A DNA stretch of 64,000 nucleotides from Candidatus Zhuqueibacterota bacterium. Its GTDB lineage: Bacteria > Zhuqueibacterota > Zhuqueibacteria > Oceanimicrobiales > Oceanimicrobiaceae. A program made the position numbers and the translations under genes. Of this stretch, positions 13,972 to 40,443 are shown piece after piece. The notes beneath the pieces were generated by a model. It was not told the origin of the DNA. It did no database searches and saw only the letters and a program-made list of their open reading frames with translations. The stretch's first letter is position 1. Every line of letters begins with the position of its first letter. Where the stretch lies: the NCBI GenBank assembly GCA_029262035.1, contig JAJDAE010000247.1:12517-76516 (forward strand), written 5' to 3'.

Positions 13972-14338
13972 TACGGATATTTTTATTTGGGTACAGCGAG
14001 GTAATAAAAAAGCCGCAAGACTAATGGAAAAATCAGCGAGCAGGAATCTTTCTATTCAAACGTATATGGAGCTTTTGCAATGCGCTCAGAACAAAACTCA
14101 ACACAAGTATGTAAAAGAGTTTCTTGCGTCGTATGGATTTATCGTTCTTCCACTCACTGAAAATATTGGTCATCGAGCATCGATTTATATTGAAGAGTAC
14201 ACACTCGGTTCAGGCTTAAGGTCTGGCGACGCGCTAATTGCAGCCACAGCAGTGGAAAATAATATGAGTCTTGTATCAAGTAATGCCCGGCATTTTAAAG
14301 CGATCAAAGATTTGGATTTTAAGATTTTCAAACCATAA
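13958..14338 (+). CDS. vapC: PIN-domain ribonuclease toxin (VapC-like)
   Basis: MMIFDTDIFIW supplies the first acidic residue. ...SGDALIAATAVENNMSLVSSNARHF is a classic PIN core. Size is 126 aa. Confidence 0.8.
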   Translation: MMIFDTDIFIWVQRGNKKAARLMEKSASRNLSIQTYMELLQCAQNKTQHKYVKEFLASYGFIVLPLTENIGHRASIYIEEYTLGSGLRSGDALIAATAVENNMSLVSSNARHFKAIKDLDFKIFKP

Positions 14339-24039: not shown

Positions 24040-24051
24040 ATTTTGTCAAAG

Positions 24052-24114
24052 TTCATTCCGGTTGCTTCGTGCTGAGAGATCTGTAAATCGCAACCGGAAT
24101 GAATTTCACGTTTT
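24052..24114 (+). terminator. strong hairpin terminator
   Basis: A 14-bp perfect inverted repeat TTCATTCCGGTTGC...GCAACCGGAATGAA with a 24-nt loop is followed by TTTCACGTTTT. Confidence 0.6.
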
Positions 24115-24162
24115 ACAATTCAGTTATCTCTTAACCACACTTCGGTTTTACTAGAAAATCAT

Positions 24163-27100
24163 ATGCAGTATTTTCGATATCTTGTTTTTACTATTGGTTT
24201 ATTTTGCACGCTTCAATCAACGATGGCGCAATCACCCAGGCCCAGATTTTATAAACCACAATTTTCTGATAGCAATTTATTGGGAATTAACAACAATCTG
24301 CTGGAAAAATCTAACTCTGGCTTTACGATTAATACGAATACAATTGGTAGTCCGGATACGCTCAAGCTGCTGGTTATTCGCGTAGATTTTCAAACTGACA
24401 ACAATACGTTAACTACCGGGAATGGTAAATTCCAATTTGCCATTGATACTGAAAAAACGATAGATGTACCACCACATAACCGTCCCTATTTTGAAGCACA
24501 ACTTTTGGCTCTGAGTAATTATTATAAGAAGGTCTCAAGAGGAAATCTTATTCTTGAGGCGGATGTTTTTCCTGCTGCAGATACAGCCGGCTACACAGTT
24601 TTCAATCAAATGAGTTACTATTCGCCGGCAGGTAATGATGAGTTGCTAGACACCCGGCTCGCTGAATTTTTTCAGGAAAGCTTTCAGATAGCAGATTTGG
24701 CGGACAATATCGACTTTTCAAATTACGATAGTTTTATTATTTTTCATGCAGGAGTGGGATCAGATTTCGCCCTGGATTTCGATAGCACACCACAAGATAT
24801 TCCGTCGGTATTTTTAAATTTTAATGAATTGAAGAATGAGTTGGGAAATAGTGAGCCCAACTATGCGGGTATAGCTGTGAATAACGGTTCCTTCCATATT
24901 CGGGATGGCATAATTTTGCCTGAAACTCAAAGCCAGGATCAATTTGAGATTGGCATGCTGGGTACGATGGCTCTTATGTTTGGGAATCAGTTGGGGTTGC
25001 CAATCTTGTTTAACCCGGATAATGGCCGTTCAGGAATAGGCGTTTTTGGATTGATGGATCAAGGCTCCGGGAATTTTTTCGGAATGGTTCCCGCTGAACC
25101 CTGTGCCTGGTCAAAAATTTTTCTTGGCTGGGAAACTCCCATCGTAGTAAAAAACGGAGATGCTCTTCCGGTTGCGACCTCTCTTGCAAAAAATGTAAGC
25201 CAGATTTACAAAATTCCAATCAATGCCAAAGAATATTTTTTAATTGAAAATCGAAGCCGCGATTTTAATGGAGACAACTTTGCAATTGGCTTTGATGCAA
25301 AAGGGACAAAGGTTGAATTTGTGTGGGATGACCGCGGACAAATTCTGCAAGCGCAAGAACAAATTGGCGTGATTACCTCGGTGAGTGAATATGATTTTGG
25401 TTTGCCTGGTTCTGGTATTTTAATATGGCATATCGATGAAAACATAATAGGAGCGAACTTCGCCCAAAATCGCGTCAATGCTGATCCCGGTCATCGCGGG
25501 GTAGATTTAGAAGAGGCAGACGGCGCACAGGATCTCGGTCAATTTTATGGCTTTCTGAGCGCAGGCTTTGGCGCTGAAAACGGTGTAATTGAAGATATGT
25601 TTTGGGGTTCAAATGAAATTAACCTGCTTGTAAATCGTAACTCGGATGCTGTTGTTTTCTCACCTGAGACTCTGCCCAATAGTTCGGCTAATAACGGCTC
25701 GAATTCTTACATTAGAATTTTTGATTTTAGCGAGCCCGATTCTATCATGTCTTTTAGTGTGGAAAATACGATACTTCGGCCAGGCTTTCCACAAATTACA
25801 GCTGAGCCAGGTACAAGCATAAATGCCCCGGTTGCCGCTGATCTAAATAATGACGGGGTATCGGAGATTATATCTACTTCAAGTAATTCTACAGAAATTT
25901 ACGTTTGGAATGCAGACGGTACGAAATTTATACCTAATGATGAAATGTTCAATGTTATTGGTTTAAATGGTGTCACAGAATCCTACGAAAAAGCCCTGTT
26001 TGCAACCCCTCCAGGCGAAAAAATCTTTTCTCCGGCAATTGCAACCAGTGAGTCCGATACAATTGTTGTGGTAACGACAGATCGGTCGGTTGCCTTTTAT
26101 CAGCCTGAGGATGCAGATTCAAATGGAAGAGCAGATGAAATATATGTTTACGAAAGCCAGGTTGAAATTACAACTGCGCCACTCGTTTACAGTAATACCG
26201 GCAGTATATTTGAAGTAGTCTTTGGGAATGCAGATGGGGGAGTTATTCTGATTGACAGCGATAGTGTGGTCACCCCACTAATTGTTGCTCAGGGTGGCGG
26301 TGCCATTTCCGGAATTGCACGAAATATAAATTTTGACTTAGCCTACACAACAATATCTGGAGAAGTTGGTCTAATCGGGCAAAATAGAAGTTTGATTTGG
26401 CAGCGTCAAACTAATTCAAATATTTCTAATTCCCCGGTCATTGCAGATTTGAATCGGGATGGCAATGTTGATTTTATTTTAGTATCAGATTCCGGTGAGC
26501 TTTTCGCGTTTACTCAAAATGGCGATAACTTGGAAGGCCTGCCTACATCTTTTCGTGTTGAGAACCCATCGGCAATCGCTGTGAGTGACATTGATGGAGA
26601 TGGTTTTCTAGATGTTGTTTTTACCGGAGACAATCAGCTTTTTGCATTTAACCACATTGGCTCTTTAAAAAACAATTTTCCTGTACAGATTAGTCGGGCT
26701 GAAGAAGTCGGTTTAGGCGCACCGGTCTTGGTTGATTTAACCTCCGATGGAATTCCTGAAATTGTAACCGGCACCTCAGATAACCGGGTGATTGCTTATT
26801 CTGGCTCCGGTATGATAGTCGACGGTTTCCCGGTTTCTCCTGGTGGCAAAGTCAACAGTGCGCCCTATATAGCCGATCTTGAAGATGATGGAGATGTAGA
26901 AATTGTGGCTATTGCTGAGGATGGCTTTATTTATGTCTGGGATTTTGCAAGTTCGTATAATGCTGATGCTTCTCCGTGGCCTGGTCTGTTTGGCGGCTTA
27001 GGGCACCTCAATTTTAATGATGAGTTTAATCAACCGCAACAGCCCTCAACAAATTCTGTAATGGCTAAAAATTTAGTTTACAATTACCCAAATCCAACTG

Positions 27101-27339
27101 AGGGGAATCAAACCACCATTCGCTACAGATTGAATGAAGCCGCTGACGTTAATATTAAAATATATGATTTGGCCGGCGATTTTGTTGATGAGCTAACCGG
27201 ACCGGGTTTTCCCCAAGCAGACAATGAGGTCACCTGGTCTCTGACCAATATTCAAAGCGGCGTTTATCTTGCGCGGGTGGAAGCAAAGGGTGCAAGCAAT
27301 TCTGATGTTAAAGTTATTAAAATTGCAGTTGTAAAATAG
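24163..27339 (+). CDS. 1058-aa T9SS cargo protein with an N-terminal M6 (immune inhibitor A)-like domain whose HExxH is degenerate, FG-GAP/VCBS beta-propeller repeats and a T9SS CTD
   Basis: The signal peptide is present. GTMALMFGNQLGLP aligns with M6 GTFAHEYGHNLGLP (H>L, E>M, H>N). FG-GAP-like repeats include DLNNDGVSEII, DLNRDGNVDFIL, DIDGDGFLDVVF, DLTSDGIPEIVTG and DLEDDGDVEIVA. The C-terminus is NYPNPTEGNQTTIRYRLNE...VKVIKIAVVK. Confidence 0.6.
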   Translation: MQYFRYLVFTIGLFCTLQSTMAQSPRPRFYKPQFSDSNLLGINNNLLEKSNSGFTINTNTIGSPDTLKLLVIRVDFQTDNNTLTTGNGKFQFAIDTEKTIDVPPHNRPYFEAQLLALSNYYKKVSRGNLILEADVFPAADTAGYTVFNQMSYYSPAGNDELLDTRLAEFFQESFQIADLADNIDFSNYDSFIIFHAGVGSDFALDFDSTPQDIPSVFLNFNELKNELGNSEPNYAGIAVNNGSFHIRDGIILPETQSQDQFEIGMLGTMALMFGNQLGLPILFNPDNGRSGIGVFGLMDQGSGNFFGMVPAEPCAWSKIFLGWETPIVVKNGDALPVATSLAKNVSQIYKIPINAKEYFLIENRSRDFNGDNFAIGFDAKGTKVEFVWDDRGQILQAQEQIGVITSVSEYDFGLPGSGILIWHIDENIIGANFAQNRVNADPGHRGVDLEEADGAQDLGQFYGFLSAGFGAENGVIEDMFWGSNEINLLVNRNSDAVVFSPETLPNSSANNGSNSYIRIFDFSEPDSIMSFSVENTILRPGFPQITAEPGTSINAPVAADLNNDGVSEIISTSSNSTEIYVWNADGTKFIPNDEMFNVIGLNGVTESYEKALFATPPGEKIFSPAIATSESDTIVVVTTDRSVAFYQPEDADSNGRADEIYVYESQVEITTAPLVYSNTGSIFEVVFGNADGGVILIDSDSVVTPLIVAQGGGAISGIARNINFDLAYTTISGEVGLIGQNRSLIWQRQTNSNISNSPVIADLNRDGNVDFILVSDSGELFAFTQNGDNLEGLPTSFRVENPSAIAVSDIDGDGFLDVVFTGDNQLFAFNHIGSLKNNFPVQISRAEEVGLGAPVLVDLTSDGIPEIVTGTSDNRVIAYSGSGMIVDGFPVSPGGKVNSAPYIADLEDDGDVEIVAIAEDGFIYVWDFASSYNADASPWPGLFGGLGHLNFNDEFNQPQQPSTNSVMAKNLVYNYPNPTEGNQTTIRYRLNEAADVNIKIYDLAGDFVDELTGPGFPQADNEVTWSLTNIQSGVYLARVEAKGASNSDVKVIKIAVVK

Positions 27340-27407: not shown

Positions 27408-30400
27408 ATGAGAATGGAAAATTTTTTAAGTAAGAAAAAATATCTCCAGGTTTTATTCATAATATTATTTTTGTCTGGTAATTTATTGGGTCAGTTTGGC
27501 CCCGATGCTTATAATCATCCGGAGCTCGATTGGTACACCATTGAGACAGAACACTTTTTTGTCCATTTTCACAAAGGCACTGACCGTACAGCCAAAGTTA
27601 TTGCAAAAATAGCAGAGGATATTTATACACCGGTCACCTCACTTTATGAATATGAAGCAGATTCAAAAATTCATTTTATTATCAAGGATTATGAAGACTA
27701 TTCCAATGGTGCGGCTTTCTACTATGATAATAAAATAGAAATTTGGGCATCTGCTATGGATTTTGAATTGCGGGGTTCCCACAATTGGCTACGCAACGTT
27801 ATTACCCATGAATTTACCCACATGATTCAGATTGGCGCCTCCAGAAAAATTACGCGCCATGTTCCTGCAGTCTATTTCCAGGCCATTGCTTATGAAACCG
27901 AAAGGCGAGAGGATGTAATTCGTGGAGCGCCGAATACAGTTGTGTCTTATCCAATTGCGATGACGGTTATGCCAAGTTGGTACGCTGAGGGTGTCGCACA
28001 ATTTCAAATTACCGGTTTAGATTATGAAGATTGGGATGCTCACCGCGATATGATCCTGCGTACCTCGGTGCTTGAGGATAAGGTGCTGACTTATACGCAG
28101 ATGGGTGGTTTTGGAAAAAATAGCATTGGCAATGAAAAGGTCTATAATCACGGTTATGCCTTTGTTGGCTACCTTGTTAAGAATTTTGGTTTGAAATCGC
28201 TTCAACAAATTTCAAAGGAAATGAAAGGCTTTCACCGGGTAACCATCGATGGTGCCATGGAAAAAGTGACAGGTAAGAGTGCTTCCACACTTTATAACGA
28301 TTGGATTGAGGAAATAACAGCTCAGTACAAGTCTCAATTGCGGGATATTACTGAGAATCGGGTTGAAGGTGAAATTATCGAGAAAAAGGGTATTGGTAAT
28401 TTTAACCCGACCTGGGGGCCAGATGATATCAGTTTGGTTTATCTGTCTAGTTTTGAACATAATCGTCTTTCCAGTACCGGATTTAAAGCTGTGGGGCCTC
28501 TTGTTAAAAACAACAAGAAGAAAAAACTATGGGTAAGTCATGATCTTGACTGGTCGCCGGATGGAAAGAGATTGGCTTATGCTCACAAAGACAAGCAAAC
28601 CAAAAGCGGTTCAAGATTTTTTGATATTTATATATATGATCTTCAGAGAGAAAAAGAAGAACGAATCACTCGTGGACTCAGGGCGCACAGTCCAACCTGG
28701 TCGCCGGATGCTCAGGAGCTGATTTTTATCGTGAATAATGATGGTACAGAAAACCTTGTTCGTATTGAGCTGGAGACAAAAAAATTAACCTATCTCACTG
28801 ACTTTAAATATGGTGAGCAAATTGCTCATCCTGATTGGTCGCCGGATGGACAGCAGGTTTTATACTCTACTTTTATAAACAGTGGTCAGGATTTATTTCT
28901 TTTAGATCTGGAAACCAACAAGACAAAACCCTTACTTGCTGATGAGTACGATTCTCGCGATGGCGTTTATAGTCCTGATGGAAAAAAAGTCTATTTTAGC
29001 TGGGATAAAACCGGTATTTTCAATATTTATGAAATGGATTTGGAAACCAAAGGAATTGACCAGTTAACAAATGTTGTAGGCGGGGCTTTTATGCCCTCGG
29101 TAAACCGGAAAGGCGAGTTGCTTTTTTCAACATTTACAGCCGATGGGTACAAAATTGCAAAGCTGGAAAATCCCAAACCGATCAATCCGGAAAAAGCGAA
29201 TTATGCTATTTATGCAAATGAAACACAACTTGCATCTGCTGATAACAGTTTTTCTCCTTCTGCCATAGAAAAAATTAAAGCGCCGTATTATGACGATACT
29301 AAATTTTCTAATTATGAGGTAAGTCCTTATAAAACAAAGTACTCCGATATTGCTTTTATGCCACGAGTTATGGTGGATTACGGCACCCTAAAGCTCGGCA
29401 CGTATGCTTATTCTTATGAGGTACTGGAAAAATTTGGATTTCTGGCTGGCTTTGATTTGAATTCGAGATTGGATTATGACTTGTTTGCTTTGGTAGAATA
29501 CAAGAAGTTCAGCCCGACCATTTTTGCTGAGTTTTATAATCAGGTTCAAAATATTAAATTTGATGTAGATTCTACAGAACAAATTGTGAGGGGCATATTC
29601 AACTTGAATAATCCCCAGGATAAGTTTAAATATAATTTAATGGAAATTAACATCGGGCTGGATCAGAAAATTATTAATCGCTACCATACGCTTCGAGCGT
29701 CCTTTATTCATAGTCGTTATGCGACTTCGGTAAAATTTCAAGCCCCGGTTGGAGAACAAACGTTTAAGTACAAATATTTTTTGGGATACGATTTATCGTT
29801 AAAATATACGTACGATACGTTTGGCTTTAGTCGGTTTTTTGAAATAGACCCCAAAGGTCGATTTTTTGAGTTCCGCTACGAGAGAGAGTTTAATAAATTT
29901 TTGGTTGACTTTGCTACGGAGCGAGTTGTAAGTGCTGAAATTTTTGAGAACTACAATTATAACAAATTGACATTGAATTATAAGGAAAATATACCATTCT
30001 TTTTTAAAGGTCATACATTGAATTTGGATGTAAATGGTGGATTTATTGATACAAAGGTTGACAGCTTTTTTAATTTCTTTGCCGGCGGTATTATAGGTAA
30101 TAGGGGATACCCGTATTACAGCATTGAGGGGAGAAAAATGCTACAAGGCAAACTGACCTACCGGTTCCCATTATTTAATAAACTCGATATGCGTTTTATG
30201 CATCTCTACTTTGATAAAGTCTATCTCAGCGCATTTTATGATTACGGCAATGCATTTGATGAAGACAAAATTGATTTTGGCGATTTCAAGTCAAGCGTTG
30301 GCGGCGAGCTTAGGATGGATTCGTTTTCGTTTTATTCATTTCCAACAAAACTTTTTTTTAGTGCCGCCTATGGATTAGATCGGTTTGAATTTGCTGATCA

Positions 30401-30458
30401 GGTTTATGGCAAGGATTGGCGTTTTTATTTTGGTGTTTCTTTTGGTTACCTTGAATAG
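27408..30458 (+). CDS. 1016-aa outer-membrane multidomain protein (paralog A): MA-clan (M1-like) metallopeptidase domain, TolB/PD40 beta-propeller, C-terminal Omp85/D15-like beta-barrel
   Basis: Signal peptide. ITHEFTHMIQ (HExxH) is followed by WYAEGVAQF (compare M1 WLNEGFA). PD40 repeats are WSPDGKRLAY, WSPDAQELIF, WSPDGQQVLY and YSPDGKKVYF. The Y/F-rich C-terminal 400 aa carry GNRGYPYYSIEGRKMLQGKLTYRFPLF (Omp85 L6-like RGY...E.RFP) and an alternating aromatic C-terminus. Confidence 0.6.
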   Translation: MRMENFLSKKKYLQVLFIILFLSGNLLGQFGPDAYNHPELDWYTIETEHFFVHFHKGTDRTAKVIAKIAEDIYTPVTSLYEYEADSKIHFIIKDYEDYSNGAAFYYDNKIEIWASAMDFELRGSHNWLRNVITHEFTHMIQIGASRKITRHVPAVYFQAIAYETERREDVIRGAPNTVVSYPIAMTVMPSWYAEGVAQFQITGLDYEDWDAHRDMILRTSVLEDKVLTYTQMGGFGKNSIGNEKVYNHGYAFVGYLVKNFGLKSLQQISKEMKGFHRVTIDGAMEKVTGKSASTLYNDWIEEITAQYKSQLRDITENRVEGEIIEKKGIGNFNPTWGPDDISLVYLSSFEHNRLSSTGFKAVGPLVKNNKKKKLWVSHDLDWSPDGKRLAYAHKDKQTKSGSRFFDIYIYDLQREKEERITRGLRAHSPTWSPDAQELIFIVNNDGTENLVRIELETKKLTYLTDFKYGEQIAHPDWSPDGQQVLYSTFINSGQDLFLLDLETNKTKPLLADEYDSRDGVYSPDGKKVYFSWDKTGIFNIYEMDLETKGIDQLTNVVGGAFMPSVNRKGELLFSTFTADGYKIAKLENPKPINPEKANYAIYANETQLASADNSFSPSAIEKIKAPYYDDTKFSNYEVSPYKTKYSDIAFMPRVMVDYGTLKLGTYAYSYEVLEKFGFLAGFDLNSRLDYDLFALVEYKKFSPTIFAEFYNQVQNIKFDVDSTEQIVRGIFNLNNPQDKFKYNLMEINIGLDQKIINRYHTLRASFIHSRYATSVKFQAPVGEQTFKYKYFLGYDLSLKYTYDTFGFSRFFEIDPKGRFFEFRYEREFNKFLVDFATERVVSAEIFENYNYNKLTLNYKENIPFFFKGHTLNLDVNGGFIDTKVDSFFNFFAGGIIGNRGYPYYSIEGRKMLQGKLTYRFPLFNKLDMRFMHLYFDKVYLSAFYDYGNAFDEDKIDFGDFKSSVGGELRMDSFSFYSFPTKLFFSAAYGLDRFEFADQVYGKDWRFYFGVSFGYLE

Positions 30459-30470
30459 ATAAATAGGTTT

Positions 30471-31343
30471 ATGATGAAAGTAGTAGTTTTCTGTTTGTTA
30501 TTAGTTTTTGTGTTTGGGTTCGGAAATGTCACGGCTAAGGAAAAAACTAACAGCGAATTAAATGCTTTGGTAACAGCGCGTTCGGAATTTAAAGTTCGTT
30601 TAAAACAAAGTATTGAAACAACCCCCAATATTTCACTGTTTACTCAGGGAGAAACTGCAGGAGGTAAATCGGTTAAAAAGAGTGTGCTATTTTCTGCTAT
30701 TGTGCCGGGTGCCGGGCAAATTTATGCTAATTCCTACATCAAAGGTTTCTTGTTTCTAGGCGTTGAAATTGCTGCAATCGCATTAAATTTAAATTATGAT
30801 AAGAAGGCAAATGATTTTGAGGATGAATTCGAAGGGGTCGCAAATGCACAATGGGATGAAAATTCCTATTGGGACTGGATTGCACAAATAAGCAGTTTAG
30901 ATAGAAGCAATAAATCTGCTCTACGTGACTATGAACGTCGTACCTTTAGCCACTTCTTACCTAATATTATAAATCAACAATATTATGAGAATGTTGGAAA
31001 GTATAACCAATTTATTTATGGCTGGAATGATTTCAGAGACCAGCTGGGGTCCAGGATATTTACTCTTGAGGATTATCTAAATAAAGCATTTGACTCCGAG
31101 AGCTTGGATACTATTTCTCCAACGAGAGTGGGGTATGTGCAAATCCGTAAAGAGTCCAATGATAACTTTAAGAAAGCCACCACGATGACAACAATTATTA
31201 TGTTTAATCATATTTTAAGTGCCATTGACGCCGGGCTAACCACTAAATTCCATAATCGTAAATTCACAGCCGAGCTGAACATGCAAGGCAAGCTCTACAA
31301 CGAAGAACTGGTGCCGGTCTTGGCTTTAGGAGTGCTTTGGTAA
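30471..31343 (+). CDS. secreted/membrane-associated protein, DUF5683-like (paralog 1 of a tandem pair)
   Basis: Signal peptide. Motifs LFSAIVPGAGQIYANSY and MFNHILSAIDAGL are shared with the next gene. It is 13 nt downstream of paralog A. Confidence 0.35.
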   Translation: MMKVVVFCLLLVFVFGFGNVTAKEKTNSELNALVTARSEFKVRLKQSIETTPNISLFTQGETAGGKSVKKSVLFSAIVPGAGQIYANSYIKGFLFLGVEIAAIALNLNYDKKANDFEDEFEGVANAQWDENSYWDWIAQISSLDRSNKSALRDYERRTFSHFLPNIINQQYYENVGKYNQFIYGWNDFRDQLGSRIFTLEDYLNKAFDSESLDTISPTRVGYVQIRKESNDNFKKATTMTTIIMFNHILSAIDAGLTTKFHNRKFTAELNMQGKLYNEELVPVLALGVLW

Positions 31344-32135
31344 ATGATTAGATTTGAAAATTATAACATCCCTATTTCTTTGATGGTTTTGTTAGTACTG
31401 CTATCTTTAAATGCGTTGCATGCTCAACCGCTATTGAGAGGTGGCTCTGACAAGTTAAAAATAAAACAAGAAATAATTCACGCAGCCGTGAGCCGCTACA
31501 ACTCAATTGAAGAAAATACAATGGCTGGTCAGACTTTTCAGGATAGACCCGTATTAAAATCAAGAGGAAGAGCATTTTTGCAGTCGTTGCTTTTGCCCGG
31601 ATGGGGTCAACATTACGCCAATTCTAAACGAACTATGCGGTTTTTTATTTTAACGGAAGTACTTACCGTCGGTAGTTATGTTGGTTTCAGAACCTGGGGT
31701 AATTGGCTGGAAGATGATTATCGTGCATTTGCGGTTACCCATGCCGGTGTAGATTTAAAAGGAAAAAAGGATGATTATTTTGTCGATATCGGAAATTTTG
31801 ATAACATTGCGGACTATAACCAGGCGCAACTACGCGATCGGGACTTAATTGATGTTTATCGAAATACTGAAGCATTCCATTGGCAATGGGACAATAGCCA
31901 AAATCGTGATAAGTTTGAAGATTTACGTATTCGAAGTGATCGCGCCTCCAACAACTCGGAATTTGCATTAGCCGCAATCTTTTTAAATCATCTGGTTAGT
32001 GCGATCCATTCCACTCTTTCAGTTTACAAATACAATAAAAAGTTAAGTGAAAATGAAACAGGCTTTAATTTGAACTTTAAGTATGATCATAGAAGCCAGC
32101 TACTGGCTCTCAACATTTCAAAGACATTGCAATAA
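31344..32135 (+). CDS. secreted/membrane-associated protein, DUF5683-like (paralog 2)
   Basis: Signal peptide. Motifs LLLPGWGQHYANS and FLNHLVSAIHSTL. It is adjacent (1-nt gap) to paralog 1. Confidence 0.35.
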   Translation: MIRFENYNIPISLMVLLVLLSLNALHAQPLLRGGSDKLKIKQEIIHAAVSRYNSIEENTMAGQTFQDRPVLKSRGRAFLQSLLLPGWGQHYANSKRTMRFFILTEVLTVGSYVGFRTWGNWLEDDYRAFAVTHAGVDLKGKKDDYFVDIGNFDNIADYNQAQLRDRDLIDVYRNTEAFHWQWDNSQNRDKFEDLRIRSDRASNNSEFALAAIFLNHLVSAIHSTLSVYKYNKKLSENETGFNLNFKYDHRSQLLALNISKTLQ

Positions 32136-32868: not shown

Positions 32869-33828
32869 TTAACTTTTAGAAATAGCGTACTTTTTCATTT
32901 TGAAGCGTAGTGTAGCTTCCGGAATACCCAAAAGCTTAGCTGCTTTCACCTGATTTCCAGCAAATTTACCCAGCGCTTTTTTAATGAGAAATGTTTCAAC
33001 TTCTGTGATAACGCCTTTCAAGTTTTTGACCTCTAAAAAGTCAAGTGGATGACGTTTAATTTCAAAAGGTAGAAATTCAGTTGAAAGTTCGCCATTAGGC
33101 GACATCATTACCAGGTTTTCAACGCAGTTTCTCAATTCACGGATATTTCCTTTCCAATCGTATTCAAGAATTGATTCGAATATTTCTGCAGGAACAGCAG
33201 GAATTTCGATTTCATTTTCATGGCAATAGTTCTTTAAAAATGAAACGAATATTTCAGGAATATCTTGTTTCCGCTCACGCAAAGAAGGAATTGTTACGGA
33301 AAGAGGATTTAATAAAAAGTAAAAATCCTTGCGGAAGGTACCATTTTCAATATCGTTTTCCATTTCAGCGGCGCTGGCTGAAATAACCCGGATGTCCAAG
33401 GAGATATTTGTTTTTCCGTTAATCCTCCGAAAGGTATTTTCTTTGATGGCCTGAAGCAATTCAAATTGAAACTCCATACTTGTTTCGTTGATGTTATCAA
33501 GAAATAGTATCCCGTTGTTGGATCTTTCAAGAAGACCAATTGTACGCTGGATTGTACCTTCAAGCTCGACTTCTTGTCCGAAAAGATCTTTCTTGTCAAG
33601 TGTAAAACCCAAAGCAGAGCAATTAACCATTACGAATGGTTTATTTTTGCGCGTACTTAATGAGTGTATCGTTCTGGCTGTGTGCTCCTTGCCTGTGCCT
33701 GTGTCACCAATAATTAGAATGTTGCTATTAACCTTGGCAAATTTTTTGACAGCCCTATTAATCCTTTTGGCTTCAGGACTATTGCCCGTAAAGTACTCCT
33801 TGTAAATATCTGAGTCCGTTGTAATCAT
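32869..33828 (-). CDS. sigma-54-activator-like AAA+ transcriptional regulator (bEBP central domain plus Fis-type HTH). It lacks both an N-terminal sensory domain and the GAFTGA motif.
   Basis: Walker A is IIGDTGTGKEHTAR. R-finger/sensor II region is GNIRELRNCVENLV. The C-terminal HTH is KAAKLLGIPEATLRFKMKKY. The position of ESELFGHEKGAFTGA reads KKDLFGQEVELEGTIQ. Confidence 0.7.
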   Translation of the reverse strand: MITTDSDIYKEYFTGNSPEAKRINRAVKKFAKVNSNILIIGDTGTGKEHTARTIHSLSTRKNKPFVMVNCSALGFTLDKKDLFGQEVELEGTIQRTIGLLERSNNGILFLDNINETSMEFQFELLQAIKENTFRRINGKTNISLDIRVISASAAEMENDIENGTFRKDFYFLLNPLSVTIPSLRERKQDIPEIFVSFLKNYCHENEIEIPAVPAEIFESILEYDWKGNIRELRNCVENLVMMSPNGELSTEFLPFEIKRHPLDFLEVKNLKGVITEVETFLIKKALGKFAGNQVKAAKLLGIPEATLRFKMKKYAISKS

Positions 33829-33853
33829 TTAACTAACCCTCAAAAGTTAATAA

Positions 33854-34927
33854 TTATGTGTTAATTTTATTTTTAAAGTTGACAAAGTTTCCGCTATTTA
33901 GTCGTTTTTGGTATAAGGCACTCACGTAAAACAATAACGCAAGCATTCCAATTGATAAAACTGTCATGTTGATTTTGATGAAAATTGAGTTGCTAAAATA
34001 GTTTATAAAAAAAGTTAGTAGCAACATTGAAAAACCAATAGAGTTTCTTTTCTCATGAAAATAAATTTTTAAAAATTGAATAAAAGCATTCTTTTTGCGC
34101 TTAATTGGAACACCATAAACATCACCGTAAGAAATAATGGAGCTGTAAAGTTGTCCAATATCTGAGTATGAATAATTAATAAGACGAAACAGAGTAATCG
34201 AAAAAAATGAAAGACTGATAAGTAAAACGTACTGCGTGTATTTGAAAATGATTATGTTATAAACAGTACCAATTAAATTTGTAATATCCATAATGGTTAC
34301 TATAAAAAAGCAAATCATTAGGGTATTTATATGTTCTCCGAGCGATAGATCAAATTTATATAACAGTGCTCCAAAAAATACCAGAAAGAATAAAGGGAGG
34401 AAGTCAAAAAGAATAACACTTTTATATAATAGCGCATCTTCTACTTCAAGGATGAATTCCTTGTCAGCTATGAATGGAAAGTAATTCCAAATTAATGTTG
34501 GTATTGTTAAGGCAAAGGAGAATAGATAGATTTTTAAGTCAGAACTTGTTTTGAAAATATATTTTAACGTGATGAATATAACGCAGAATGCAGGGAGGAA
34601 ACTCAGAGTGATATATTTGTATTCAAAAAAGAAATAGCGAAGATAATCGTCCCCATAGAGAAAATTCTCACCAACAAAAATATCGGTAAAACTTAAGCTG
34701 TGTAAAAATGCAAAAATACCAATATTTAAGAAAATATTTTTGTTGGCGTTTCCTAGTTTATATAAGGCAATGGTTTGTAGAAAGATCAAAAAATATACCG
34801 AACAGTTAAGCCAGGAAAATACCGGCACTACTTGATGGGGTAGATTAGAAATGATTATCAGAAGCAAAATAAATGATAACCACCAATTTACTATTTTTAT
34901 GTGAATACTTTGATTCTTTTTTAACAT
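33854..34927 (-). CDS. polytopic integral membrane protein (about 8-10 TM helices), candidate membrane sensor coupled to the downstream AAA+ regulator
   Basis: Highly hydrophobic 357-aa ORF rich in F/I/L segments. Same strand and 25 nt upstream of the regulator gene. No conserved catalytic motif seen. Confidence 0.5.
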   Translation of the reverse strand: MLKKNQSIHIKIVNWWLSFILLLIIISNLPHQVVPVFSWLNCSVYFLIFLQTIALYKLGNANKNIFLNIGIFAFLHSLSFTDIFVGENFLYGDDYLRYFFFEYKYITLSFLPAFCVIFITLKYIFKTSSDLKIYLFSFALTIPTLIWNYFPFIADKEFILEVEDALLYKSVILFDFLPLFFLVFFGALLYKFDLSLGEHINTLMICFFIVTIMDITNLIGTVYNIIIFKYTQYVLLISLSFFSITLFRLINYSYSDIGQLYSSIISYGDVYGVPIKRKKNAFIQFLKIYFHEKRNSIGFSMLLLTFFINYFSNSIFIKINMTVLSIGMLALLFYVSALYQKRLNSGNFVNFKNKINT

Positions 34928-34988
34928 GACCCGAACAGAAAGTTCAAAGTTAGTAAATTCCCTGCGACATTCACAACAAACAATGCCC

Positions 34989-35255
34989 CTAGCGTTTCTT
35001 TCTTTTCTTACGTCGCGGCTTTGGTTTTTTTGCTGGTGGTGGCATAGGATCTCGCAAGCTCACCTGAGTTATATTCTGAGAATCTTTAGATCCCATTTGA
35101 CTAGTTGGAGCAAACGCTGTAGTAGCTGCTTCACTCAGTTCAAATTTCGTTAGAAATGAAGTGAGCTTTTCTTGATTGTCAAAAGCTGTGAAGACAGTAA
35201 TGAAAACAAAGTACAGTGAAAAAGTTGTAGCGACAGCGAACAGTTTTTTCTTCAT
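34989..35255 (-). CDS. small secreted or membrane-anchored protein with an extreme polybasic C-terminal tail
   Basis: 88 aa. The N-terminal hydrophobic signal/anchor is MKKKLFAVATTFSLYFVFITVFTAF. The C-terminus is PMPPPAKKPKPRRKKRKKR. Confidence 0.4.
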   Translation of the reverse strand: MKKKLFAVATTFSLYFVFITVFTAFDNQEKLTSFLTKFELSEAATTAFAPTSQMGSKDSQNITQVSLRDPMPPPAKKPKPRRKKRKKR

Positions 35256-35492
35256 AGGCCCTCCTAAAAAATATGAAGAACTTTCTGTCCGAGCCCTTTG
35301 GTTTAAATTTGCAATTTATGCAATAAAAAGGTGCATAAATTACAAAAGAGAATGAACCAAGTTGAAAAAATGTTTCGACGATTTGATGAAAAGGAAAAAA
35401 GTATGCGTCGACACCATTCTCTATATATAATAAGGAAGAAATTTTGGATTGTCAATAATTTTTTTAAGATTATTCGTAGGTTTTTAAGGATA

Positions 35493-37100
35493 CTAGTTTA
35501 ATTGTCGGGCTAAGGATAGCAGGTCATGTGCCTCCGGAAAATAATTTATACCGCTATTCAATTGCTTATCTCTAAGCAAGTTCACCCTGAGTTGAGCAGT
35601 TTTTCCCCAAATCATATATGCCATCTCTCTTTTTAGGAGAAATTGAATGTTTTTAATATTATCTGCATTTTTCAGGTTATTCATGTTCTCGATATTATCG
35701 TAATGAACCGCGAATTTCAGAAAGTCATTTAATATTTCATTTGTTACTTCAAAACTTTTTATAAATCGTTTTTCCCCTCTTTTTTCTATTTGTGGATTTT
35801 TTGCCCGAAATGTTTCTATGTATGCATGAAACGAACGTTTTTTTGAATAGAACAGTTTTCTTAAAGTTTCTGAAAGTGTATTGTTATCATTTTTAATCCA
35901 AATGTCGGGCTTAATGCCCCCATCTGCGTAAACTTTTCGTCCTAACAATGTGTGAAACTCTGCTTGCAGGCTATTATCATATTGAGAAATTGAGTCGTTA
36001 TACGCCTCTCTGTAATATTCATCTTTAGTTTTGGCGAAAAAATTTCTTTGGATAGGTCTGCCACTCGGCGTATAATACTTAGCTGTGGTTATTAAGAGTG
36101 CTGAGCCATCATGGAAACGGTATTGGCTTTGAACAAGACCCTTGCCAAAACTTGTTTTGCCTATGATCAAGCCTCTGTCAAGATCTTGAATTGCGCCTGC
36201 TACTATCTCAGATGCGCTGGCAGAACCATGGTCAATTAATACAATCATTGGAAACAGTTCATGGGTTTTAGCAGCGGTTGAGCGGAATTCTTGGTAAGAA
36301 CTGGCTAACCGGCCTTTGGTTGTCACAATGTTGTTACCTGCAGGAATGAATTTGTCAGTTACTTCAACAGCGGCATTTAAATAACCACCACTGTTACCTC
36401 GTAAATCTAAAACCAGATAGGTCATGCCTTTCTGCTTCAATTCTTTCAAAGCTTGATCTAGTTCCCGGGATGTTGTTGAGGTGAAACGATCGATTTTTAT
36501 ATAGCCAATATTTTGTTTTACCATCAAAGCAAACGGGATGCTTTGTAAAAGTATTCTTTCACGAATTAATTGTATTTCACGTGGTTTGGAAGATTGTAGA
36601 TTTTGTAAAGTTAGAGTAATGGGTAATCCCGGTGGACCGTTCAACTTTGCAACTATGTTTTCTTTTGGAATATTGGTTACATCATCTCCGTTTATTTTTA
36701 ATATTTTATCGCCGGGATGAATACCATATTTTTCTGCGGGACTTGAATCCAGAATGGACATTATAGTCACTTTTCCATTAATTATTTCAAAGCCGATACC
36801 AATGCCGGTATATCCTTCAAAATTTTGATTCCAATTGGTGAAATCGTTTGCGGGCAGAAATACCGTGTGGGGATCCAAATTTTTAACCACGCCTTTTATG
36901 GCTTCCTCTATTAACTCTTCTGTAGTTTTTTCCTCTAAGTACGAGCGTTGAATAGTTTCCATAACAGAAGTAAAAATTTTAATCTGAGTATAAAAATTTT
37001 CAGTTTTGGCCATCAATTTAGGTAAATTTACTTCTTGGAGAATAAAGCCAATGGGTATAAAAATTAGACCTAAGATGAATATTATTTGCTTAGCACGCAT
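35493..37100 (-). CDS. ctpA: carboxyl-terminal processing protease (S41 family, PDZ-containing)
   Basis: S41 catalytic region DHGSASASEIVAGAIQD, with the Lys region GKTSFGKGLVQS. A PDZ segment and an N-terminal TM anchor are present. Confidence 0.8.
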   Translation of the reverse strand: MRAKQIIFILGLIFIPIGFILQEVNLPKLMAKTENFYTQIKIFTSVMETIQRSYLEEKTTEELIEEAIKGVVKNLDPHTVFLPANDFTNWNQNFEGYTGIGIGFEIINGKVTIMSILDSSPAEKYGIHPGDKILKINGDDVTNIPKENIVAKLNGPPGLPITLTLQNLQSSKPREIQLIRERILLQSIPFALMVKQNIGYIKIDRFTSTTSRELDQALKELKQKGMTYLVLDLRGNSGGYLNAAVEVTDKFIPAGNNIVTTKGRLASSYQEFRSTAAKTHELFPMIVLIDHGSASASEIVAGAIQDLDRGLIIGKTSFGKGLVQSQYRFHDGSALLITTAKYYTPSGRPIQRNFFAKTKDEYYREAYNDSISQYDNSLQAEFHTLLGRKVYADGGIKPDIWIKNDNNTLSETLRKLFYSKKRSFHAYIETFRAKNPQIEKRGEKRFIKSFEVTNEILNDFLKFAVHYDNIENMNNLKNADNIKNIQFLLKREMAYMIWGKTAQLRVNLLRDKQLNSGINYFPEAHDLLSLARQLN

Positions 37101-37467
37101 ATAAGCACCCGTTGTGAGTTTAAATAAATTTTCCAGTCAGAGGAATTTTCTTCAAAAAAAATGTATTTAATATAAGTAGTGAAACATTAAATGATTCAAA
37201 AAATGCACTGATAATTGAGCCATATCAAAATTGTGCTATAATATCTATCGGAAAATTACAACCAAAAATTAACTTGATAGAGGTGCATATTTTGTTAAAT
37301 TGTAGCAAAGAATTTGGAAGATATTTTGTTATGGACGATAACCCTTTTCGAAGTGACCTTCTTGAGAAAATGTATTTCTGCCCTATTTCATCTTAAGTTT
37401 TTATGGATTTAATAATTCAATTTTGTCTCACCAAAGACAGTTATCCACCAACCAAAAGAGTTGTAGT

Positions 37468-40443
37468 ATGATAAATATAAAGCTTGTCCGAAATAGCATT
37501 ATTCTTGTTTGTATTTTATGTATTTCGTCTGGGGCTTTTTCGCAATACTATTTTGGAAGAAACAAAATCCAGTACGATGATTTTCGCTGGAATATTTTAA
37601 AGACTGAGCATTATGACGTTTATTTTTATCCGGAGATGCGGGAACTTGCGGAAATAGGGGCAGCCATGGCCGAGGATGCGTATACGCGCCTGGAAAGCAA
37701 GTTGAACCACAACATCACACGCAGAATTCCTCTGATTTTTTATTCAAACCATATTCATTTCCAGCAGACAAATACAATTCCTAATTTTATTTCGGAAGGT
37801 GTTGGCGGTTTTTTTGAATTTATAAAGGGTAGAGTGGTGATTCCCTCTACTGGTTCAATTCATGATTTCAAGCACGTTATTAATCACGAGATGGTACATG
37901 TTTTCACGCGTAGTAAATTAGGCAGGGGATATAAAGATCGCCGGAGAACCCTCTTTGCCGGCGCTCCTTTATGGTTTACTGAAGGCATCGCAGAATACTG
38001 GTCGGAAGGCTGGGATTCTCAAGCAGAAATGTTTATTCGCGATGCAATGTTAAGTGGGTATCTTGTGCCGGTTAGCCAGATGGACAGAATTTATGGTACC
38101 TTTTTAATGTATAAAGAGGGGCAGGCAATCTGTCGGTTTATTGCTGAAAATTTTGGTGAGGAGAAGTTGCTGCTGCTGCTGGAAAATGCCTGGAAAGCTG
38201 AACGTTTTTCGGAAGTGATGAAGCTGACAATTGGCCTTAACTACAAAGAATTTGATAAAAAGTGGATTTATGATTTAAAGAAGAAAATTTATCCTTTGCT
38301 TGATGAAGGAGATGAACCCTACCAGGTAACCAAAGAGTTTACCCAGGCTGGGTTTAATACCAAGCCGGCATATTTCAAAAAGGATGGGGAAGACTGGGTA
38401 GCATTTACAGCAAATCGTATGGGCTATTCGAATATTTACATCAAACCTCTCGGCGTTAAAACTAAATCTCCCGAAGTTTTAGTTAAGGGGGAGCGCACTC
38501 CGGATTATGAATCCTTTTATTTGCTGAAAAGTAAGCTCGATGTTAATGATTCAGGAAAGCTTACGTTTATATCGAAAAGCGGTGCCAGAGATGCACTTTA
38601 TGTTTATGATATTTCAACCAGGGAAAATACCCGCAAATTTGATTTTCCCGATTTAGTTTCTTTGTCGTCGCCACATTGGTCACCCGATGAAAAGGTGATT
38701 GTTTTTTCCGGGAAGAGCTTTGCGGGACAACCCGATTTGTATACCTTGACAGTTGAAACCGGTGACCTGCAACGATTGACAAATGATTTTTATGATGATA
38801 AAGACCCTGAATGGTCGCCGGATGGTAAAACCATTGCCTTCAGTTCCGATCGGTCTTATTATGGTAAAGAAGGTGTCAAAAACTTGTTTTTGTACGAAGT
38901 GCTGACGGGACAGATACGCCATATTACCTGCGGACCCTACAACGATTTTTCACCCACATGGTCTCCCGATGGTCAAAATATTGTTTTTTCTTCTGATAGA
39001 GATGGCACTTTCAATCTATGGATGCTAAAAAATAATACGTTTAATTTTGAGCCGTTTGATGATAACAGCCTGGTTGTCGCCTCACTGGATAACGGTGATA
39101 TTCAACCTGACTACACAAAAAATGATGGGCAATTAGATAGTTTTGATTCGGTCGACGGAGTCTTGAAAAATTTGTACCCCTCAGCAATTGAGCCAGCCGA
39201 TGAAATAAAAAAGATAACCAATTTTACAACCGGTGCCCAGGATGCTGAATGGGTTGATAACAACAGATTGATTTTTTCAGCCTTTCAGGGATTCAGTTTT
39301 CAAATTCGGGAATTGAATGATATTCAAAAGAAATTTGCCGAGGCAGACACGGTCGTTCACGATGTGGTTACAGGAACGAACGATATTTGGGTTCCCAATA
39401 AAATTGTCGGCCAGGTAGATGCTACCCAGATAAAGTACAAAAAGAAATTCAATCTGGATATCGCCCAAAGTGCAATTGCACATGATCCGGTTTACGGTTC
39501 GACCGGTGGCGCCCAACTCGCTATGAGCGATATGCTTGGTAACCAGAAGTACTTTTTCCTTCTGTACAATAATGCTCAAAGGAGCAGTGAGTTTTTTAAA
39601 AGCTGGAATTTTGCGGTCACTCGGGTGGATCTAGGTCGCCGTGTAAATACAGCCGTTGGGTTGTTTAGAATTTCAGGCCGCTTTTTCGATCGGGTCGATA
39701 GTTTCTTTGACCAGGAAAGAGTCGGTGGGTTCGTTTCTGCCAGCTATCCTTTCTCAGTTTTTAACAGAATAGAAGGCAGTATCAGTTTACGAAAAGAACG
39801 TCGGGAGTATCTTAACAGAAGCATAAACGGTATCATCGCTTCTAATTCAATCTCTTATGTTAAAGATAATACGCTTTGGGGTGTTACCGGTCCGGTTGAT
39901 GGTGAACGATACAATGTTACAGTTGGTCATACACTCGATATTCAAAATAACGATGTTAGTTTTTTTACCTTTACAACCGATTACCGAAAATATTTTCGCT
40001 TAAGCCGGCGCACAACTTACGCCACGCGTGTAATGGGGAGATTTAATGTTGGCAAAGAATCTTTCCGCTATTTTATGGGTGGTAGCTGGGATTTGAGGTT
40101 GTATCCGCGATGGCGTATTTGGGGACGGAAATTATTTCTTCTAAATAATGAAGTGAGATTCCCTTTGCTGGATAGATTGATTCTGGGTTTTCCTTTTGGC
40201 GGTTTGGGTTTTGGCGGGTTTCAGGGAGCCGCTTTTGTAGATCTCGGTCAGGCTTGGGATAGTGAGTATCATTTCGAAGAGGTGTTGGGAAGCATGGGGC
40301 TTGGCATTCGTATGCGGTTTGGTGGGTTCCTGGTTTTAAGGTATGAAATTGGCCGTACTTTTCAAGTTAATGATTTAAGCAATCCTTCTATTCATTGGGA
40401 TAGCGGACTAAAAAAAGCATTTTGGTTTGGGCTTGACTTTTAA
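37468..40443 (+). CDS. ~990-aa outer-membrane multidomain protein (paralog B): MA-clan metallopeptidase domain, PD40 beta-propeller, Omp85/D15-like C-terminal beta-barrel
   Basis: Preferred start MINIKLVRNS... at 37468, with a signal peptide. The ORF track starts at 37423. VINHEMVHVF (HExxH) is followed by WFTEGIAEYW. PD40 repeats are WSPDEKVIVF, WSPDGKTIAF and WSPDGQNIVF. The C-terminal region has FMGGSWDLRLYPRWRIWGRKLFLLNNEVRFPLLD and the beta-signal-like end AFWFGLDF. Confidence 0.6.
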   Translation: MINIKLVRNSIILVCILCISSGAFSQYYFGRNKIQYDDFRWNILKTEHYDVYFYPEMRELAEIGAAMAEDAYTRLESKLNHNITRRIPLIFYSNHIHFQQTNTIPNFISEGVGGFFEFIKGRVVIPSTGSIHDFKHVINHEMVHVFTRSKLGRGYKDRRRTLFAGAPLWFTEGIAEYWSEGWDSQAEMFIRDAMLSGYLVPVSQMDRIYGTFLMYKEGQAICRFIAENFGEEKLLLLLENAWKAERFSEVMKLTIGLNYKEFDKKWIYDLKKKIYPLLDEGDEPYQVTKEFTQAGFNTKPAYFKKDGEDWVAFTANRMGYSNIYIKPLGVKTKSPEVLVKGERTPDYESFYLLKSKLDVNDSGKLTFISKSGARDALYVYDISTRENTRKFDFPDLVSLSSPHWSPDEKVIVFSGKSFAGQPDLYTLTVETGDLQRLTNDFYDDKDPEWSPDGKTIAFSSDRSYYGKEGVKNLFLYEVLTGQIRHITCGPYNDFSPTWSPDGQNIVFSSDRDGTFNLWMLKNNTFNFEPFDDNSLVVASLDNGDIQPDYTKNDGQLDSFDSVDGVLKNLYPSAIEPADEIKKITNFTTGAQDAEWVDNNRLIFSAFQGFSFQIRELNDIQKKFAEADTVVHDVVTGTNDIWVPNKIVGQVDATQIKYKKKFNLDIAQSAIAHDPVYGSTGGAQLAMSDMLGNQKYFFLLYNNAQRSSEFFKSWNFAVTRVDLGRRVNTAVGLFRISGRFFDRVDSFFDQERVGGFVSASYPFSVFNRIEGSISLRKERREYLNRSINGIIASNSISYVKDNTLWGVTGPVDGERYNVTVGHTLDIQNNDVSFFTFTTDYRKYFRLSRRTTYATRVMGRFNVGKESFRYFMGGSWDLRLYPRWRIWGRKLFLLNNEVRFPLLDRLILGFPFGGLGFGGFQGAAFVDLGQAWDSEYHFEEVLGSMGLGIRMRFGGFLVLRYEIGRTFQVNDLSNPSIHWDSGLKKAFWFGLDF

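Follow-up and report, generated by a model that had tools for sequence, protein, structure and literature searches.

How does a transcriptional regulator without a sensory domain receive its signal, and what can it still do once the loop that contacts sigma-54 has been replaced? These questions are raised by a cluster of four co-directional genes on the minus strand of a 64,000-nucleotide stretch of DNA from Candidatus Zhuqueibacterota bacterium (contig JAJDAE010000247.1), hereafter the window. The genes encode an S41 peptidase, a small protein, a polytopic membrane protein, and a regulator resembling the bacterial enhancer-binding proteins (bEBPs). An original prediction, made from the letters of the window, had placed the cluster between two Omp85-peptidase paralogues. 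All four open reading frames (ORFs) are present exactly as predicted, and the flanking genes encode proteins of ~1000 amino acids (aa) with Peptidase_MA_2 and PD40 domains, the orthologues of which match Omp85. The reading that we prefer, and that carries about half of our confidence, is a signalling unit consisting of a sigma-54-independent, degenerate bEBP, a membrane-receptor partner, and a small protein, with a two-state mRNA leader and an optional protease.

Motifs retained and lost in the regulator

The regulator matches Sigma54_activat (PF00158) at residues 14–178 with 151 bits, together with AAA_lid_14 and HTH_8, and contains no other recognizable domain. The HTH_8 match corresponds to the Fis-like helix-turn-helix (HTH) foreseen in the original prediction, and the claimed lack of a receiver, GAF, or PAS input domain is borne out by the absence of any domain match before residue 14. 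There is no overlooked upstream receiver domain either, since the ORF is maximal and the gene of the membrane protein ends 25 nt upstream; the length of the family is 310–335 aa, and the regulator gene has its own Shine-Dalgarno (SD) sequence, GAGGG. In the AlphaFold2 (AF2) model, which has a predicted local distance difference test score (pLDDT) of 84, only residues 1–12 are disordered, and the AAA+ domain follows without an additional domain. A Foldseek search with this model returned Brucella NtrX as the best solved structure, followed by ZraR, FlrC, NtrC1, and FleQ.

The motifs were aligned residue by residue to the solved bEBPs ZraR, NifA, FleQ, and NtrC1 and to the E. coli PspF, NtrC, and TyrR sequences from NC_000913.3, and their conservation was counted over 120 orthologue clusters (57–88% identity, 310–335 aa). 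In the L1 loop, FGQEV-ELEGT of the regulator lies opposite FGHEKGAFTGA of ZraR, with one residue deleted and the Phe and Thr replaced. The alignments to ZraR, PspF, and NtrC agree with the earlier statement that GAFTGA is replaced: the GAFTGA Phe (F85) is kept in 0/120 clusters and the Thr in 6/120. Walker A is GDTGTGKE, and its Lys is kept in 118/120 clusters. Walker B reads LFLDN where the canonical sequence is LFLDE, and the Glu is kept in none of the 120 (Asn in 100, His in 10, Tyr in 8). The arginine finger (R-finger; PspF R168, NtrC1 R299) is a Leu, FYFLLN versus LYYRLN, with Arg in 0/120 (Leu in 89, Gln in 12, His in 6), and the sensor I Thr is changed to Ser or Ala, being kept only in 11/120. 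N64 (116/120), R162 (102/120), and the sensor II Arg (110/120) are largely retained. The AAA+ core had been called complete, which these counts contradict, and GNIRELRNCVENLV had been mistaken for the R-finger region; its GNIRELRN is the sensor II motif, which is intact. Family members at 43–55% identity show the same motif losses. E. coli TyrR, the classic GAFTGA-less homologue, differs in retaining the Walker B DE and both arginines, whereas the regulator family has lost the Glu, the R-finger, and sensor I.

For AAA+ enzymes and for mutants of PspF and NtrC1, an intact Walker A without the Walker B Glu and the R-finger predicts that the nucleotide is bound while hydrolysis is inefficient. 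By analogy, the regulator probably binds ATP and would serve as a non-hydrolysing scaffold.

An alternative that we regard as very improbable is that the protein still activates sigma-54 through a non-canonical L1 loop. In its favor, the replacement loop, E-x-E-x-x-G-T-I-Q-R-T-I, is itself well conserved within the family, the hidden Markov model (HMM) match to Sigma54_activat is strong, and the occurrence of canonical bEBPs in the KSB1-group lineage makes it very likely that sigma-54 exists there. Among the KSB1 metagenome-assembled genomes (MAGs) that carry the regulator family, locus L027 holds a bEBP fragment with FLDEIGE, FREDLYYRI, and WPGNVRELEN, and locus L046 encodes a receiver domain, after which the contig breaks off at ...ELFGHEK; GAFTGA is intact in close homologues of these two bEBPs, including some that bear the name 'candidate division KSB1'. 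The loss of the Phe and Thr of GAFTGA, of the Walker B Glu, and of the R-finger nevertheless speaks against this alternative, and the promoter evidence points the same way: a check of the window for -24/-12 promoters yielded 33 consensus matches versus 32.6 expected by chance, none of them sensibly placed, and the promoter preceding the operon in relatives is sigma-70-like. Furthermore, the characterized GAFTGA-defective homologues are all sigma-54-independent; TyrR, DhaR, HupR, VpsR, YplP, and NtrX act at sigma-70 promoters, as do the NtrC proteins of R. capsulatus and Caulobacter (PMC3162934, PMC6158489, bioRxiv 10.1101/2023.06.06.543975). No rpoN, RpoN box, or GAFTGA-containing ORF was found in the window and ~640 kb of lineage DNA, a sampling that is local and hence uninformative, and a literature search for KSB1 together with sigma-54 found nothing. 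The next-nearest relatives of the regulator, from Acidobacteriota at 35% identity, have GAFTGA or GSFTGA; together with the canonical bEBPs of the lineage, this identifies the regulator family as a specialized degenerate branch. The original prediction of a sigma-54-independent AAA+ regulator is therefore well supported at the sequence level. The regulator would be a stripped descendant of a sigma-54 activator that can neither contact sigma-54 nor power open-complex formation.

The preferred reading assigns to it the manner of working of the atypical EBPs, i.e., that of an ordinary activator or repressor near sigma-70-type promoters, and its dependence on such promoters is suggested by this analogy. 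TyrR, Brucella NtrX, V. cholerae VpsR, R. capsulatus HupR and NtrC, Caulobacter NtrC, and E. coli DhaR all resemble the regulator in joining an AAA+ domain to a Fis-type HTH and in having a GAFTGA loop that is either defective or missing. VpsR also shares the degenerate Walker B; its ATPase activity is undetectable, and it binds immediately upstream of the -35 element (PMC6158489). Unlike the regulator family, however, the characterized atypical EBPs possess an N-terminal sensory domain (REC, ACT/PAS, or GAF), and the candidate partner of the regulator is, in contrast to theirs, a dedicated orphan membrane protein. The atypical EBPs show ordinary sigma-70 regulation being built on the scaffold of sigma-54 activators, and every studied example has kept its sensory domain; the present family, which spans a candidate-phylum-level group and lacks the sensor, the sigma-54 loop, and the hydrolysis residues, appears as the minimal case. 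Its most fitting place is among the atypical EBPs, as a new and minimal type that probably has no ATPase activity.

PspF and HrpR/HrpS (group V) likewise consist of AAA+ and HTH domains only, are controlled in trans (by PspA and HrpV, respectively), and are linked to the envelope. In PspF, however, GAFTGA, Walker B, and the R-finger are all intact, and the protein is an activator of sigma-54. PspA blocks the ATPase of PspF, whereas the cluster has no PspA-like gene and its candidate partner is an integral protein with 10 transmembrane helices. The PspF/PspA-like logic proposed earlier thus survives in the domain architecture alone, as no PspA-like partner is seen and the ATPase that would be its target is already degenerate. 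PexR was considered as a precedent and rejected, being a canonical GAF-domain bEBP that carries GAFTGA.

Two side observations concern the regulator family. The linker that joins the AAA+ lid to the HTH (residues ~245–275, LSTEFLPFEIKRHPLDFLEVKNLKG) is nearly invariant family-wide, with L253, P254, H260, E266, N269, and L270 unchanged, whereas it is variable in canonical bEBPs; such conservation suggests an interaction surface. In addition, public annotations of the orthologues (NCBI, JGI) read 'sigma-54-dependent/interacting transcriptional regulator', 'NtrC family response regulator', 'AtoC', or 'PilR', although the proteins so named have neither a receiver domain nor the sigma-54 contact loop. 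The sigma-54-dependent label is almost certainly wrong for this family.

Gene linkage and the candidate partners

Regulator relatives with at least 43% identity all derive from KSB1, Calditrichota, or Zhuqueibacterota MAGs, and a scan of species-representative genomes recovered relatives at 50–76% identity. Many of the MAGs hold two paralogous copies. In copy A, the order is a divergent Omp85-type peptidase, an optional GGDEF gene, the S41 gene, the small gene, the membrane protein gene, the regulator gene, and a divergent RpiA gene; copy B comprises only the last three genes of the co-directional series, i.e., small, membrane protein, and regulator, in another neighborhood and without S41. 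The order of these three is kept in both copies across the KSB1, Calditrichota, and Zhuqueibacterota MAGs, and the membrane protein gene lies directly upstream of the regulator gene in at least 43 of 61 distinct loci. An S41 gene is found within 2.6 kb in 18/45 loci, 7 of which have no small and membrane protein genes. The conserved core is the triad of small protein, membrane protein, and regulator rather than the four genes, and the S41 protease is a facultative neighbor of the triad.

The pairing of membrane protein and regulator is also kept in a very remote relative. A remote homologue of the membrane protein (E = 6e-13) overlaps by 4 nt with a downstream gene for a 297-aa AAA+/HTH_8 protein, which is more eroded than the regulator, its L1 loop being wholly deleted and both arginines lost. 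This pairing indicates that the ancient unit is the membrane protein together with a degenerate bEBP. On this sequence of events, the unit would have acquired the small protein in the KSB1 group, with S41 and GGDEF as accessories.

Neither the membrane protein nor the small protein matches any Pfam or NCBIfam model. The membrane protein had already been recognized as polytopic in the original prediction, and its AF2 model (pLDDT 74, predicted template modeling score 0.73) has 10 helices. The N- and C-termini are predicted to be cytoplasmic, with seven Lys and Arg residues on inside loops versus one elsewhere, and the predicted periplasmic loops are just 5–9 residues long. A cytoplasmic loop (residues 255–280) is conserved and basic, with invariant G272, P274, I275, and R277 (GVPIKRKK), and H31, N41, N62, E198, H199, and Q232 are conserved polar residues within the membrane or in loops. 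Helices 1–7 resemble seven-transmembrane (7TM) receptors; the fold matches, which are GPCR-like and show 5–12% identity, are to receptors and not to transporters. An exhaustive profile search of 1.84 billion representative proteins identified 182 relatives of the membrane protein, all of which are stand-alone proteins of at most 403 aa, and no domain fusion was seen among them.

Since the regulator has no sensory domain, some input in trans is needed. The idea that the membrane protein supplies it had been put forward in the original prediction as one of two routes, and this part gains support from the conserved adjacency and from the remote homologous pair. A direct contact between the two proteins is suggested by the same linkage: the signal would pass from the upstream-encoded membrane protein, which may bind, sequester, or release the regulator. 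In E. coli, Mlc is sequestered at the membrane by PtsG/EIICB. The logic proposed here is the same, in that a DNA-binding protein without a ligand domain would be held on the cytoplasmic surface of a membrane protein; the families are unrelated, however, and the interaction proposed here is deduced from gene linkage alone. Should the membrane protein be the sensor, it would constitute a new, compact route from the envelope to DNA without phosphorylation or proteolysis, and an orphan 7TM-like family would gain a function.

The adjacency may also be explained without any signalling link, the regulator autoregulating its operon and the membrane and small proteins being the cargo of that operon and serving as a transporter, an enzyme, or a structural envelope component. 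Regulators frequently adjoin their targets, the conserved polar residues of the membrane protein could be catalytic or transport sites, and none of its 182 relatives is fused to a signalling domain. We nonetheless judge this explanation unlikely: it leaves a regulator without a sensory domain also without an input, the membrane protein–regulator pair with its 4-nt overlap persists at very large evolutionary distance, and the fold matches do not point to transporters.

The small-protein family is characterized by an N-terminal signal-anchor (MKKKLF...) and by one to five copies of DP[MT]PxPPK near the C-terminus, with DPMPPP as the proline motif of the window protein. The codons of the motif vary freely (GAT 33, GAC 10, with the Pro codons evenly used), which shows that the motif is conserved as protein and that the small ORF is genuinely coding. 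The protein had been described as a polybasic-tail micro-protein; a polybasic tail, KKPKPRRKKRKKR, does exist but is confined to the sub-clade of the window, whereas the signal-anchor and the proline motif are the family-wide features. The extreme C-termini are not conserved. In copy B, the small proteins carry up to five tandem LIDP[MT]PRPPK repeats. In the preferred reading, the small exported protein would serve as a periplasmic co-factor or ligand.

The S41 protein has an N-terminal anchor, a PDZ domain, an S41 domain (PF03572) with the GSASASE and FGKG motifs of the Ser/Lys dyad, and a C-terminal extension of ~180 aa without a Pfam match. It passes TIGR00225 (274 bits, cutoff 218.6) but fails the CtpA equivalog NF045588 (224 bits, cutoff 625). 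The earlier designation as a CtpA protease therefore holds for the general class of S41 C-terminal processing peptidases and not for CtpA itself. The likeness to Prc/Tsp, CtpA, and CtpB accordingly lies in the PDZ and S41 domains, the dyad motifs, and the TIGR00225 score, while the scores far below the equivalog cutoffs and the C-terminal extension set the protein apart from CtpA/B/C.

Regulated proteolysis, in which the main signal is the trimming of the small protein or of a membrane protein loop by S41 and the regulator is thereby released or activated, is an alternative to which we assign a low probability. S41, the small protein, and the membrane protein are all located in the envelope; in the window, as in many copy-A loci, the S41 gene immediately precedes the triad in the same orientation, no terminator lies between the S41 and small genes, and some loci keep S41 beside the regulator after deletion of the other two. 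However, the S41 gene is missing from the majority of loci as counted above, from the copy-B triads, and from the remote relative, and the triad has its own promoter. Moreover, S41 PDZ domains read the extreme C-terminus of a substrate, which in the small proteins is not conserved, and the periplasmic loops of the membrane protein are short, at 5–9 residues. For the same reasons, i.e., the S41 count, its absence from copy B, and the unconserved C-termini, the CtpA-dependent, RseP-like logic of the original prediction finds no support other than the facultative presence of S41 nearby. In the preferred reading, the protease may act on the periplasmic side where it is present.

The GGDEF gene that heads the cluster in many relatives raises another alternative, namely that the regulator is a cyclic di-GMP (c-di-GMP) effector like FleQ or VpsR, with c-di-GMP supplied by the GGDEF protein and the membrane protein co-expressed without being the sensor. 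This gene stands directly upstream of S41 in 7 of 15 species-representative loci and in L002–L005, and an HD-GYP/GAF protein is encoded in the window (Table 1). In addition, VpsR, an EBP with neither GAFTGA nor ATPase activity, requires c-di-GMP and binds adjacent to a -35 element (PMC6158489). We consider this alternative quite improbable. The residues used by FleQ are altered in the family (R144 to Glu/Asp, N186 to Gln/His/Lys, E330 to Tyr/Phe, R334 to Lys/Asn), and GGDEF is absent from the copy-B triads, from the remote relative, and from the entire 64-kb window, including positions 37101–37422. A FleQ-type pocket (the R-switch LFRS, KExxxRN, and ExxxR) was rejected as a candidate, its residues not being conserved except for the generic R185.

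The leader RNA and the promoter region

Downstream of the -35 and -10 elements of relatives lies a near-invariant box, CGAC[CT]CG[AG]ACAG, the reverse complement of which directly precedes the start codon of the membrane protein gene. In the window, the corresponding arms GGCUCGGACAGAAAGUUC and GAACUUUCUGUUCGGGUC form a helix of 18 bp that spans ~350 nt, encloses the small ORF, and buries the start codon of the membrane protein gene. Three G.U wobbles in this helix would be C.A mismatches on the opposite strand.

The long-range helix was assessed over 29 distinct loci. Across its 11 core pairs, none of the 319 cells is unpaired; 16 cells vary, and all of them keep pairing (11 G.U/U.G, four C-G to U-A, one A-U to G-C), while the pairs next to the core use up to five pair types. 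Covariation of the helix exceeds that of 500/500 shuffles, and slid registers are 28–45% paired as against 82.6% in the true register. In the closest relatives, further changes in the arms are wobble-only or compensated. The helix closes both the minimum free energy (MFE) and the centroid fold of the 401-nt region, and its 3′ arm ends 0–6 nt before the AUG of the membrane protein gene in 29/29 loci. No GGAG-type SD is found upstream of this AUG, whereas the small gene has AGGAGGG (35265–35259). Rfam contains no matching family; the search gave a chance-level hit elsewhere in the region (E = 0.064, 19.5 bits versus a gathering threshold of 60).

The same 5′ element also contributes to a local hairpin with two stems. 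In P1, CGAACAG, which reads CGGACAG in the window, pairs with CUGUUCG (35243–35237), which forms codons 5–7 of the small ORF, and in P2, UUCUUCAU (35280–35273) pairs with AUGAAGAA (35255–35248), thereby burying the start codon of the small ORF and leaving its SD in the loop. When the local leader is folded, this hairpin emerges as the MFE structure in 28/29 loci. Synonymous sites support P1: the Leu codon is CTG in 28/28 loci versus 17–24% background use, the Phe codon is TTC in 26/29 versus 24–38%, and the leader follows the codon differences in L109, L110, L045, and L004. RNAalifold on a MAFFT alignment recovered P1 only; P2 was tested by duplex energies against shuffles, which gave p < 0.05 in 16/28 loci with a median p of 0.015 and a weak signal in copy B.

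Because the 5′ element is shared, the long-range helix and the local hairpin are mutually exclusive. The near-invariance of the box follows from a triple constraint, since it pairs both with the coding sequence CUG-UUC-G, i.e., LF(A), and with the start region of the membrane protein gene. This two-state leader RNA is previously undescribed, and it offers a clean, covariation-backed case of a long-range mRNA helix in competition with a local hairpin. Its function is suggested by the sites that it covers. In the local state, the start of the small ORF would be closed and that of the membrane protein gene open; the long-range state would close the start of the membrane protein gene, which has no SD, so that translation of the two proteins would be set reciprocally. 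Reciprocal translational control of this kind, or possibly RNase III processing at the long helix, is what the arrangement leads us to infer. Combined, the parts would form an undescribed one-step pair in which a 7TM-like protein directly controls a pseudo-ATPase regulator, with a small protein as ligand or co-receptor and a bistable reciprocal leader; in this full form, the proposal is tentative, and we would expect it to fail in some part more readily than to hold throughout.

Other interpretations of the repeated box were rejected. For two DNA operators formed by the box CGACCCGAACAG and its inverted copy, the differences between the arms would not be expected to be G.U on the sense strand or compensatory, as they are, and the flanks covary as well. 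The G.U-only mismatches and the lack of a recombinase nearby speak against an invertible DNA segment. The leader resembles SecM, MifM, and VemP in its small upstream ORF with an export signal, its C-terminal proline-rich motif, and a downstream start buried in a helix. It differs in that the proline motif lies 60–130 nt upstream of the helix arm, is repeated up to five times, and is conserved at the protein level, as expected of a functional protein; the last motif lies 24–72 nt before the stop of the small ORF, which in turn lies 26–79 nt before the 3′ arm. As the partner strand of the helix is in the 5′ leader and not at the 3′ end of the ORF, a stalled ribosome could not melt the helix directly. 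An arrest leader in its simple form was therefore rejected: too great a distance separates the motif from the helix, and the free variation of the motif's codons marks it as a feature of the protein.

A sigma-70-like promoter that belongs to the triad itself, TTGACA-N17-TATATT, precedes the small gene in relatives, where a dyad, (T/A)CG(C/T)A-N6-T(G/A)CG(A/T), ends 7–9 nt upstream of the -35 element. The homologous copy in the window, TTGTAATTTATGCAC, is a candidate operator only. L145, the closest relative, has also kept the best sigma-70-type match on the operon strand of the window, TTGACA-17-TATTAT (11/12); this match is located ~130 nt upstream of where the promoter sits in other relatives. 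With this distal promoter in the sub-clade of the window, the 5′ helix arm would be well inside the leader and not close to the 5′ end of the transcript. As a side observation, the proximal element (35300–35345) is degenerate in the window, and it is the strong distal promoter that L145 shares.

Several observations weigh against the reading preferred here. The regulator may retain residual ATP hydrolysis despite the Glu-to-Asn and Arg-to-Leu changes, since the loss is predicted from PspF and NtrC1 mutants. Approximately 15–25% of loci have no adjacent membrane protein gene, and the regulator can therefore exist without a partner encoded in cis; some of these loci are deletion relics, as is visible in L009, which retains a DPMPPP remnant. 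Foldseek returned no significant match for the model of the membrane protein, and in view of this and of the 5–12% identity, the label 'receptor' is an analogy. At the promoter, both half-sites of the window dyad have changed from CG to TG, and the -35 element at the homologous position is degenerate. Assigning the dyad to the regulator by covariation with the HTH was tried and is unsupported: the recognition helix, PEATLRFK[MI]KKY, shows no variation in either paralogue type, whereas their dyads are only loosely alike. Lastly, copies of the dyad elsewhere in the window are not enriched (24 versus 38.5 expected), so that no regulon can be defined.

Features of the window and of related loci

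The coordinates of all features are collected in Table 1.

Table 1. Coordinates of the cluster, its leader and promoter elements, and neighboring genes within the 64-kb window.
Feature	Coordinates	Strand	Remarks
Regulator, bEBP-derived AAA+ domain, lid, and Fis-type HTH	32869-33828	minus	319 aa
Orphan membrane protein, 10 helices	33854-34927	minus	357 aa
Small exported/anchored protein (predicted)	34989-35255	minus	88 aa
S41 C-terminal processing peptidase	35493-37100	minus	535 aa
Shared 5′ leader element	35273-35295	minus	long-range 5′ arm and local P1/P2 strands
Long-range helix, 5′ arm GGCUCGGACAGAAAGUUC	35295-35278	minus	same element also gives local P1
Long-range helix, 3′ arm GAACUUUCUGUUCGGGUC	34945-34928	minus	abuts the AUG of the membrane protein gene (34927) and covers its ribosome-binding region
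Local hairpin 3′ strands inside the small ORF	35237-35255	minus	P2 and P1 strands
Degenerate dyad copy TTGTAATTTATGCAC, candidate operator only	35331-35345	minus	homologous to the dyad of relatives
Best sigma-70-type match, TTGACA-17-TATTAT, 11/12	35427-35455	minus	operon strand
Flanking ~1000-aa paralogues	27408-30458 and 37423-40443	plus	Peptidase_MA_2 and PD40/Tricorn-type beta-propellers
Tandem DUF5683 pair	30471-31343 and 31344-32135	plus	between the first Omp85-type peptidase and RpiA
GAF and HD/HD_5 (HD-GYP-type) protein, possible c-di-GMP phosphodiesterase	12052-13617	plus	~20 kb from the cluster
PIN-domain (VapC-like) protein	13958-14338	plus	just upstream of dnaG
PorV-like protein, then 1058-aa FG-GAP protein with T9SS (type IX secretion system) C-terminal sorting domain	22966-27339	plus

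The orthologues of the flanking paralogues match the C-terminal barrel of Omp85, so that each resembles a protease fused to an outer-membrane barrel, which is unusual; one such peptidase adjoins the S41/triad cluster divergently in nearly all copy-A loci. The DUF5683 pair keeps the same position in the copy-A loci of relatives. A GGDEF gene lies between the Omp85-type peptidase and S41 in L002–L005, L009–L012, L015, L016, and L026.

The copy-B loci include L023, L025, L027, L033, L045, L046, L109, and L110. The triad follows an unannotated ORF of ~490–600 aa in L023, L025, L027, and L045, and the canonical GAFTGA-type bEBPs of L027 and L046 are encoded near it. In L040 (5801–6484) and L044 (4552–5232), an ORF of ~227 aa with four transmembrane helices is found upstream of the regulator, with no recognizable membrane protein partner of the present family; it was judged by eye to be rhomboid-like (MIPIRD... 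/ WWAHIGGF).

The wider context of the window is envelope-themed, with PorV, proteins with T9SS tails, a BamB-like propeller, and PEGA, and the PorV-like protein and the sorting domain indicate that the organism probably has a type IX secretion system.

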